A stretch of DNA of 24,000 nt, from assembly GCA_964492305.1 (NCBI GenBank), contig CAZBJN010000002.1, positions 279 through 24,278 of the forward strand, read 5' to 3'. A model generated the notes under the pieces. The model saw nothing but the letters and a program-made list of their open reading frames with translations. It searched no databases and was not told where the DNA came from. A program made the position numbers and the translations under genes. This DNA is from an uncultured Candidatus Saccharibacteria bacterium. GTDB taxonomy: Bacteria > Patescibacteriota > Minisyncoccia > Phycocordibacterales > UBA918. Of this stretch, positions 13,723 to 14,263 are shown piece after piece (within the stretch, counting starts at the first letter, position 1; every line of letters starts with the position of its first letter).

Positions 13723-13809
13723 GCCCAGGTGGCGAAATTGGTAGACGCACTACCTTGAGGTGGTAGCGCCTTTACGGGCATGCTGGTTCAAATCCAGTCT
13801 TGGGCACCA
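13723..13809 (+). tRNA. tRNA-Leu (anticodon GAG), class II with a long variable arm
   Basis: GCCCAGG TG GCGAAATTGGTAGACGC A CTACC TTGAGGT GGTAG (variable arm CGCCTTTACGGGCAT) GCTGG TTCAAAT CCAGT CTTGGGC A CCA. The anticodon loop UUGAGGU gives GAG. CCA is present in the DNA at 13807-13809. Confidence 0.92.
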
Positions 13810-13893
13810 CAACGCAAATAAAAAACACCCCTTCATTTGAAGGGGTGTTTTTTATTTAGCCAGCCAACTGCTTGGCTGGCGTGCGTTGTGGTG
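13805..13893 (+). other. 89-nt three-way palindromic unit overlapping the tRNA-Leu 3' end
   Basis: Arm caccacaacgca (13805-13816, including the tRNA 3' CACCA) is the exact reverse complement of tgcgttgtggtg (13882-13893). The arms enclose a 19-bp terminator hairpin (13816-13834 / 13839-13857, followed by UUUUUUAUUU) and the 22-nt hairpin GCCAGCCAA-CUGC-TTGGCTGGC (13859-13880). Confidence 0.85.
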
Positions 13894-13948
13894 AAGCGCA
13901 GCCATAATTTCCTCGCCTTCCTAGCGAGGAAATTGGCGAGCTGGGGCA

Positions 13949-14003
13949 GCAGGTACTTAGTGCTCGTAACTAGCGAAGCTAGTGAGAACACTTAGTAACC
14001 TGC
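13949..14003 (+). repeat. Copy E (variant, 55 nt) of the ACTNAGT imperfect-palindrome family
   Basis: GCAGGT-ACTTAGTG-CTCGTAA-CTAGC-GAA-GCTAG-TGAGAAC-ACTTAGTA-ACCTGC. It has a 6-bp closing stem, two ACTTAGT boxes and a GAA-capped 5-bp mini-stem. Confidence 0.7.
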
Positions 14004-14014
14004 GCCAAGGCCGG

Positions 14015-14075
14015 GTCGAGAACACTTAGTAGATTTGGAGTCGGAGACGAACAGATATACTTAGTGATTCGTGAC
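14015..14075 (+). repeat. Copy D of the ~61-nt imperfect-palindrome repeat (end of the tRNA-Leu downstream module)
   Basis: GTCGAGAACACTTAGTAGATTTG-GAGTCGGAGACGAA-CAGATATACTTAGTGATTCGTGAC. It is near-identical to copy B, which lies on the other strand. Confidence 0.85.
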
Positions 14076-14263
14076 CAAAGACGTAACGACTAACAACTGC
14101 GATATATATTAAATAAGTTTGACCAAAGTTGTAAGCAAGCTATCTAGTGACCTAATCCAGTCTTTATAAACAAACTTAGTAGCTCTAGCCCCAATCCACC
14201 CTTACCAACCAACCCCAAATCAAGGGTTGAAACAATTGGTTCATTTTTGCGTATCAATGGAGT

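Follow-up and report, generated by a model that had tools for sequence, protein, structure and literature searches.

Small hairpins behind the tRNA genes of a Saccharibacteria contig as arms of a larger structured unit, probably an integrative element of Patescibacteria

Introduction

What are the 22-nucleotide (nt) hairpins that stand directly behind tRNA genes in DNA of an uncultured Candidatus Saccharibacteria bacterium? The question is raised by a stretch of 24,000 nt (GenBank assembly GCA_964492305.1, contig CAZBJN010000002.1, positions 279 to 24,278; the whole stretch is called the window below), and in particular by a hairpin 3' of its tRNA-Leu gene. The original prediction saw in this hairpin and three others a free-standing family with unrelated stem sequences, recognised by shape and by a CUGY loop or produced by a templated fold-back process. 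Each window hairpin, here called hairpin B, is the short arm of a three-way junction within a larger folded composite unit of ~170-270 nt. Units lie 3' of tRNA-Arg, of tRNA-Val (two units) and of tRNA-Leu, so that all three tRNA genes of the window carry them. The hairpins probably belong, as modules, to a Patescibacteria-specific integrative element that is small, highly structured and without proteins, and that inserts at and replaces the 3' ends of genes. The unit itself is best fitted by a non-autonomous element that targets the 3' ends of tRNA and transfer-messenger RNA (tmRNA) genes, occasionally of protein genes, with two preferred sites in the tRNA.

Patescibacteria have tiny genomes and few recognised mobile elements, yet the unit follows many of their tRNA genes and tmRNA and is nearly invariant across classes. 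It joins features so far known separately: the target regeneration of integrase islands, the hairpin handles of attC and IS200/IS605, and the complementary arm of guide systems, with no protein of its own. As far as the literature and Rfam were searched, such an element appears not to have been described.

The window hairpins and the unit that contains them

All four hairpins were found where the original prediction had placed them, at 9674-9695, 10086-10107 and 10259-10280 on the minus strand and at 13859-13880 on the plus strand. The format of 9 base pairs (bp) and a 4-nt loop, CTGC or CTGT, holds in every one, as does the claim that CTGY reads on the strand of the adjacent tRNA. Three of the four have perfect 9-bp stems, and 9674-9695 has a single C.A mismatch in the tRNA sense. 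A tenth pair is impossible in all four, and each is framed as A-[G..N8..loop..N8'..C]-G. The comparison with shuffled controls that the original prediction called for was made on the window, with 200 dinucleotide shuffles setting the chance level: hairpins with a CTGY/RCAG loop number 4, against a mean of 0.04 and a maximum of 1 in the shuffles, and hairpins of 9 bp and 4 nt of any loop (<=1 mismatch) number 14, against 2.7. As Rho-independent terminators the four window copies can be set aside, since all lack a T-tract and a terminator scan calls none of them.

Read in the tRNA sense, the unit begins with the last tRNA bases and the trailer (X), followed by hairpin A, hairpin B, arm X', a core and a terminal hairpin, P3. 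Hairpin A is long, A/T-framed and terminator-like; in Unit 4 it is called by the terminator scan as a bidirectional terminator-like site. Arm X' is the reverse complement of X, that is, it is complementary to the 3' end of the target. Because X' pairs with the tRNA end and trailer, hairpins A and B form two arms of a three-way junction. The core spans ~35-50 nt, with two helices, a purine-rich internal loop and a variable hairpin, and P3 is an imperfect hairpin of 61-63 nt (GGTCGAGAAC ACTTAGTAGATTTGGAG .. CAAATATACTTAGT GATTCGTGACC), present in 4 copies in the window where 0.07 are expected. The predicted RNA fold of Unit 1 reaches -85 kcal/mol (z -8.5), with X:X' closing the three-way junction, and that of Unit 4 reaches -145 kcal/mol (z -12.9). 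The units, their parts and their targets are as follows.

9561..9749, minus strand: Unit 1, 3' of tRNA-Arg(TCT) (fold; covariance model 90 bits); X 9738-9749, hairpin A 9697-9738, hairpin B 9674-9695, X' 9661-9672, core 9624-9660, P3 9561-9623
9745..9817, minus strand: tRNA-Arg(TCT), target of Unit 1; X' pairs with its terminal 4 nt, GGCA
10132..10333, minus strand: Unit 2, 3' of tRNA-Val(TAC) (covariance model 116 bits); X 10322-10333, hairpin A 10284-10320, hairpin B 10259-10280, X' 10246-10257, core 10193-10245, P3 10132-10192
9966..10122, minus strand: Unit 3, older, without a tRNA of its own (covariance model 98 bits; ortholog in locus L111); antisense of the tRNA-Val acceptor 3' strand and trailer 10106-10122, hairpin B 10086-10107, T-arm antisense 10073-10082, core 10041-10072, P3 9978-10040, displaced sense copy of tRNA-Val positions 57-68 (AAATCTCTCATC) 9966-9977
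10329..10402, minus strand: tRNA-Val(TAC), target of Units 2 and 3
13805..14076, plus strand: Unit 4, 3' of tRNA-Leu(GAG) (covariance model 75 bits; fold); X 13805-13816, hairpin A 13816-13857, hairpin B 13859-13880 (the hairpin that raised the question), X' 13882-13893, core 13894-13944, a second, diverged P3-like hairpin 13945-14006 upstream of the canonical P3, P3 14014-14076
13723..13809, plus strand: tRNA-Leu(GAG), target of Unit 4
14144..14165, plus strand: relic of an older tRNA-Leu unit, terminal P3 bases (..CTAGTGACC) joined to a displaced tRNA-Leu T-loop/3' part (TAATCCAGTCTTT)

In Unit 3, hairpin B is inserted within the antisense of the tRNA-Val 3' end, and a perfect 17-nt inverted repeat (10106-22 / 10325-41) ties this unit to the end of tRNA-Val.

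Distribution and genomic targets

Relatives can be found by scanning for a 20-nt degenerate P3 motif, which was done with one genome per species; 8-kb loci around the matches carry labels that start with L. At least 117 loci were found, of which about 100 hold true copies, nearly all in Patescibacteria (Paceibacteria/Parcubacteria, including Kaiserbacteria and Nomurabacteria, and Saccharibacteria), and the remaining matches are chance hits in coding DNA of other phyla. The same motif scan of a viral contig collection gave 0 matches. In total, more than 140 copies of the unit were collected from ~100 Patescibacteria loci.

Among elements with enough upstream sequence, 101 of 121 have a tRNA or tmRNA on the same strand within 600 nt upstream, and the targets span about 18 tRNA isotypes plus tmRNA. 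In loci chosen for containing the element, 90 of 151 tRNA/tmRNA genes are followed by one. Of 75 unit-bearing tRNA genes, 74 have C directly after the discriminator (CA in 48, full CCA in 12). Protein genes can also be targets: ftsZ in three loci of Kaiserbacteria type and rplB in one. The ftsZ units (L006 ~6770-7060, L036 ~2920-3040 and L051 ~5110-5230, with two in tandem in L006) supply a new C-terminal peptide (..AVPAFLRRSKLK, then stop), and the old coding end is left behind P3.

Several loci deserve separate mention. In L058 a group I intron (1498-1716; Rfam RF00028, 52.8 bits) lies directly 5' of the tRNA 3' part that precedes the unit; ARAGORN missed this tRNA, apparently interrupted by the intron, and the unit behind it is one apparent exception to the tRNA rule. 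In L108 (~870-4090), L007 (~650-1860) and L013 (~1900-2000), the arm and displaced fragment resemble a tRNA 3' end, yet the upstream sequence yielded no tRNA. Three units of this kind lie in 4 kb of L108, and almost the same sequence (..cacagttctaacatcctctacaacgtcgcccacgag) stands before the first and the second.

Conservation and folding of the sense strand

Alignment of 54 core and P3 sequences gave a consensus structure, the basis of covariance model R1. Compensatory double changes are seen in 13 of the 29 pairs of this structure (e.g., 67/117 AU36/GC17, 68/115 CG36/UA16 and 74/109 GC37/CG13). In the core, two three-pair helices flank the purine-rich internal loop (G-S-A / G-A), with the variable hairpin besides; pair 7/56 is found as GC39/AU15 and pair 8/55 with four pair types. 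Within P3, covarying pairs stand beside a bulged A, and a G.U at 63/121 as well as U.U and G.A mismatches are conserved; the hairpin is nearly invariant, at ~90% identity across classes. The model finds 155 matches in 100 loci and scores the four window copies at 75-116 bits in the sense direction versus <=24 bits in antisense.

The choice of strand can also be read from the pairs themselves. By a tally of alignment pair counts, G.U pairs are more numerous than A.C mismatches in the core and P3, and when the left part is folded by prediction once for each strand, G.U pairs number 55 in sense versus 22 in antisense. This excess places the folded strand on the tRNA-sense side, as RNA or as single-stranded DNA. 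An RNA from the antisense strand, prompted by the G.U reading of 9674-9695 on the plus strand, was rejected, since the stem is perfect in a sister strain and the core and P3 favour sense.

The fold admits variation. P3 tolerates inserted hairpins in its apical loop or 3' arm (L041, L101, L064 and L085), and in longer variants (L050 2117-2215, L066 3303-3398, L054 and L032) core and P3 are separated by a further conserved domain, GTGAGAA-hairpin-GCAAGACCTTGCC-hairpin-GACAAGGTGTACAGAATTCGTAGAAT. A fragment related to this domain, GGTACTG-[ACCC TGTA AGGGT]-CGAA, recurs in L118, L091, L049, L071 and L018. Matches to a P3-only model were considered as autonomous copies and rejected, as they are longer non-coding variants with an extra hairpin domain and not open reading frames (ORFs).

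The signature of integration

Regeneration of the target together with a displaced fragment is an accepted hallmark of integration at tRNA genes (PMC4383910), and the units carry both. The 17 nt after P3 agree with positions 57-73 of the upstream tRNA at 13 or more places in 18 loci, 9 of which agree at all 17; the agreement mostly ends no more than a few nt from position 73. Beyond the displaced copy lie the old trailer, often the old terminator and sometimes an older unit. In the window the displaced-fragment direct repeat, the hallmark of tRNA-gene islands, is seen at 9966-9977 and 14153-14165.

The junctions follow a positional rule. Twelve units pair the 3' end of the arm with tRNA position 54 and 18 with position 70, and 5 others fall at 69-72, which gives two classes: a T-loop class, with the arm from 54 and the displaced copy from 57, and an acceptor-end class, with the arm from ~70 and the copy from 73. 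The first base after P3 in the acceptor-end class equals the discriminator, generally A and, in 5 of 5 tRNA-Trp cases, G. Since arms start at 54 or 70 and copies at 57 or 73, the displaced sequence begins 3 nt inside the arm complementarity. The same 3-nt offset is found at ftsZ in L006 (GGC|AGTGCC; L036 and L051 fit less exactly) and at rplB (CGG|CAAGCGG), and at both genes the element brings a new coding 3' end, so that the coding end is duplicated.

Comparisons of strains and species bear on the turnover of the units. L118, a contig from a sister strain that encodes the same acylphosphatase, is 99% identical to the window until the 3' end of tRNA-Val; past this point it has a different unit and then three nested remnants, each a P3 fragment plus AAATCTC... 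The comparisons with L118 and L111 both reveal nested 5'-truncated P3 fragments, each followed by a tRNA remnant. L111 (Kaiserbacteria RIFCSPLOWO2_01_FULL_45_25) is ~90% identical to the window over 3.5 kb. Its ortholog of Unit 3 lies directly behind tRNA-Val, and Unit 2 is therefore without a counterpart there. Its tRNA-Leu has an intact unit of the T-loop class that ends ..CGTGACC|TAATCCAGTCTTG, whereas the window has a different, acceptor-end unit and the relic at 14144-14165. Such differences indicate that new units arise beside the tRNA and that older ones shift outward and decay. A side feature of L118 is a 131-amino-acid ORF (1079-1474, minus strand) without a Pfam match, located between the decayed tRNA-Val units and tRNA-Arg and absent from the window.

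Hairpin B as an optional module

With the family in hand, hairpin B can be followed beyond the window. A census with strict A-[G N8 loop N8' C]-G criteria, searched upstream of core and P3 only, found it in 68 of 145 units. The stems are variants of GAAAGCAAA, GCAAGCAAA and GAAAGTGCC, so the claim of unrelated stem sequences does not stand: the 68 hairpins are homologous variants of G[A/C]AAG[C/T][A/G][A/C][A/C] with compensatory changes. Eight of the 9 pairs occur with 3-4 Watson-Crick types, a figure that is informative only as to the diversity of pair types, as the 68 copies were chosen for pairing. The loop reads CTGC in 42 copies, CTGT in 3, and TAGT, TAAT, AAGT or others in the rest; the conserved CTGY loop thus stood in all four window copies but was found in just 45 of 68 across the wider family.

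Nor is the hairpin a free-standing family. It is an optional module of the larger unit, and related units without it exist; for example, it is missing from the tRNA-Val unit of L118, where the antisense arm is uninterrupted, and from many units of the T-loop class. When it interrupts an arm, hairpin B has the look of 25 nt neatly inserted (A + 22 nt + GT) where acceptor and T-stem meet. In short units of other genomes, a single hairpin of 9-10 pairs with a CTGC/CTGT loop lies between X and X' and carries a T-tract, and is therefore the terminator-like hairpin itself. A shape-constrained arm of the left-hand junction best fits these observations.

The idea of recognition by shape keeps part of its ground, in that size and shape are conserved, the stem compensates freely and the hairpin is strand-locked to the tRNA, but the strongly conserved and probably recognised part is another hairpin, P3. 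Because no protein partner was found, recognition of hairpin B by a protein, nuclease or recombinase is something we infer. The fold-back alternative gains some support, as the tRNA 3' end and trailer are present in an inverted copy that borders or encloses hairpin B.

A candidate mechanism

A single strand would be recognised in its folded form, as is suggested by the fold on one strand, the conservation of P3 and an arm reaching 3 nt across the junction. A trans-acting enzyme encoded outside the unit (a recombinase, HUH nuclease or reverse transcriptase) would recognise the folded sense strand, as single-stranded DNA or RNA, with P3 as its main handle. The target-complementary arm would align the element with its target, and strand transfer would take place 3 nt into the arm:target duplex. 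The integrated unit supplies a fresh 3' end for its target, leaving the gene whole, and has the displaced original directly behind P3. New units would enter beside the tRNA, and older units would be pushed outward and decay by deletion. Hairpin B may serve as a shape-constrained spacer or junction arm and may double as the terminator in short variants. Alignment with the target in this way could resemble that of integron attC and CTX attP, of IS200/IS605 guides or of intron guides. If the partner enzyme is found, it could reveal a new guided recombination or processing activity.

Comparison with known systems

One close parallel is offered by the islands and prophages that tyrosine integrases insert into tRNA and tmRNA genes, the Islander principle (PMC4383910). 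Like the unit, these restore the 3' part of the split gene and leave a displaced fragment at the far end; crossover in the T-loop is a known sublocation, and tandem arrays at one tRNA gene occur (PMC4383910). However, tRNA-gene islands measure kilobases and carry an integrase, and the unit measures ~0.2 kb with no integrase or ORF. Each island integrase serves one tRNA at one sublocation (anticodon loop, T-loop or T/acceptor junction), whereas the unit family covers more than 18 tRNA types, tmRNA, ftsZ and rplB. Unlike islands, the units also have a second site at 72|73, besides 56|57, a target-complementary internal arm and folded hairpins on one strand.

Miniature inverted-repeat transposable elements have terminal inverted repeats and a target-site duplication of fixed length; the two ends of the unit differ (target copy or trailer versus P3), and its repeat measures ~20 nt at one kind of site and ~3 nt at the other. 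REP/BIME/REPIN, BOX, Correia and RPE-type repeats are short modular palindromes of 3' intergenic regions that are mobilised in trans (by RAYT for REPINs). They share with the unit a short, non-coding, multi-copy nature and modular hairpins that are gained and lost, but they have no fixed gene target, no regenerated target 3' end and no target-complementary arm.

IS200/IS605 elements recognise their cleavage sites through an internal guide of 4-5 nt that base-pairs with them, and TnpA (Y1) acts in cis or in trans. These elements and their miniatures resemble the unit in the folding of one strand, in hairpin handles, in a short internal sequence that pairs 5' of the insertion and in sense-strand (lagging-template-like) insertion. 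They differ in the lack of a target repeat, in their 4-5-nt guides and in their ends, as the unit repeats its target and has 12-25 nt of complementarity. The units do show guide-like 3-nt pairing 5' of the junction, with a repeated target and with no TnpA or TnpB seen in 95 loci of 8 kb. A TnpB/omega-RNA system with the displaced fragment as guide was rejected, as it would target the intact tRNA copy. HEARO in Rfam is the guide RNA of IscB; the Rfam guide-RNA families gave no match to the units.

Integron attC and CTX phage attP also use a folded single strand with bulged bases in which the paired sequence is free, and short units form arrays. The arm and the restored target copy of the unit would form a duplex that mimics the target. 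Features of attC such as the R''/L''..L'/R' boxes, AAC..GTT and a crossover inside R' are absent from the unit, in which P3 has another, strongly conserved sequence and the junction falls at the last base of P3; an integron integrase and an attI context are missing as well. Self-splicing introns (the internal guide of group I, the exon-binding sites of group II) offer a further parallel, with a guide in the 5' part that pairs across the junction, 3 nt upstream and more downstream. Class IIC introns insert behind terminators, as the unit lies behind a terminator hairpin, and a bulged A stands near the 3' end of the last hairpin. Against this, the unit matches no Rfam intron or ribozyme at gathering score, its core and P3 total only ~110 nt, it has no terminal G or AY, and no splicing is needed for an intact host gene. 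The readings as a group I or group II intron or as a small ribozyme were rejected, with no model match and a core that is too small.

Weighing the explanations

Several points weigh against an integrative element. The enzyme was not found, and no autonomous copy is present among about 150 units. The strain and species comparisons contain no true empty site or excised form, so it is from the differences seen in those comparisons that we infer mobility. The integrative reading gives no account of how the arm comes to match each new tRNA: Unit 4 closely resembles a Saccharibacteria tRNA-Lys unit (L011) in its trailer and hairpin A, and the arms differ in 4-5 tRNA-specific bases. In most acceptor-end units the old trailer has lost its match to the arm, so that for these units guidance by pairing is only presumed. 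The tRNA census was drawn from loci selected for containing the element. Finally, three features would also fit a selected cellular function: copies at different tRNAs of one genome are diverged, P3 stays ~90% identical across classes, and among tmRNA units that seem to be orthologs the long hairpin stays paired.

A bolder form of the integrative element can be envisaged, which we regard as a tentative proposal with the chances against it. The unit would be a programmable mobile element of a new class, a ~200-nt RNA or single-stranded DNA with its own guide (the arm, covering target -3 to +9..+20). Self-catalysed or aided by an enzyme of the host or one encoded elsewhere, it would insert exactly 3 nt into the duplex where tRNA genes, tmRNA genes and some protein genes end, and it would bring a replacement 3' end and terminator that let the host gene survive. 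Because both ends of the unit resemble tRNA 3' ends, a unit-length RNA could be excised by the tRNA-processing machinery.

Deep conservation and matched arms make a cellular RNA function a serious rival, though we think it unlikely. The unit would be a cis-encoded structured RNA attached to tRNA genes, whose transcript, from read-through or made separately, folds core and P3 and binds a conserved protein; the arm would pair with the 3' end or trailer of the pre-tRNA for 3'-end processing, quality control, termination or stabilisation, with hairpin B as a structural arm. Strong covariation and strand specificity are typical of functional RNAs, the arm always matches the local tRNA end, and the trailer starts with C after N73 in nearly every gene (74/75), to which the near-invariance of P3 and the pairing kept in diverged tmRNA units can be added. 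What speaks against it is that the conserved part lies behind a terminator-like hairpin, that only a fraction of tRNAs carry it and that units also stand behind ftsZ and rplB with duplicated coding ends. Nested decayed copies, strain-level differences and the optional nature of hairpin B and other modules point the same way.

It is less probable still that the units are passive by-products, in which, with no dedicated machinery, tandem duplication, gene conversion from one arm to the other and fold-back (template-switch) replication enlarge palindromes at tRNA terminators. Such a process is consistent with the region from T-loop to arm, which is one long inverted repeat centred on hairpin A, and with the tandem arrays and deletions between P3 copies that do occur. 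It leaves unexplained the ~110-nt non-palindromic core and P3, conserved and covarying across the phylum, the spread over more than 18 tRNA types and protein genes, and the sharp 54/70 and +3 regularities. An independent 22-nt hairpin family, each member recognised by shape and CUGY loop as its own site, is very improbable and largely refuted: the fixed 9-bp and 4-nt format with compensatory changes and the conserved A/G flanks would suit it, but every copy (in a census confined to the region upstream of core and P3) sits at a fixed place inside a larger unit, otherwise complete units lack the hairpin, a third of the copies do not conserve the loop, and the hairpin can merge with the terminator.

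Searches for a protein or a known family

The units, at 170-300 nt, contain no ORFs. Clustering of ORFs across 95 loci of 8 kb yielded housekeeping families only, with no recurrent recombinase, transposase or reverse transcriptase, and Pfam searches of the window ORFs and of the 131-amino-acid ORF of L118 gave no recombinase, reverse transcriptase or HUH match; the window has no transposase either. At gathering score, Rfam 15 finds only tRNA in the window; at E up to 10, all non-tRNA matches are below gathering and at chance level (best ohsC, 35.9 bits versus 50). In 15 further loci, Rfam finds tRNAs and one unrelated group I intron only. The full-text literature was searched for the motif sequences and for accounts of elements of this kind, with nothing relevant found, and an exact-protein look-up of the ion-transport gene adjoining tRNA-Leu returned no record.

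Annotation and other features of the window

With their tRNA fragments and long palindromes, the units mislead the annotation and assembly of Patescibacteria genomes; covariance model R1 can now be used to detect them. Two features of the window stand apart from the units. An ORF of 489 amino acids (4020-5489, minus strand) with a DUF5667 match has a long acidic region of 9-nt periodic repeats, with 19 in-register copies and a GAT/GAA-rich coding strand. At 6134-6857, the first 59 nt of a small gene for a tRNA-binding domain (PF01588) are shared with a RuvX-like gene.
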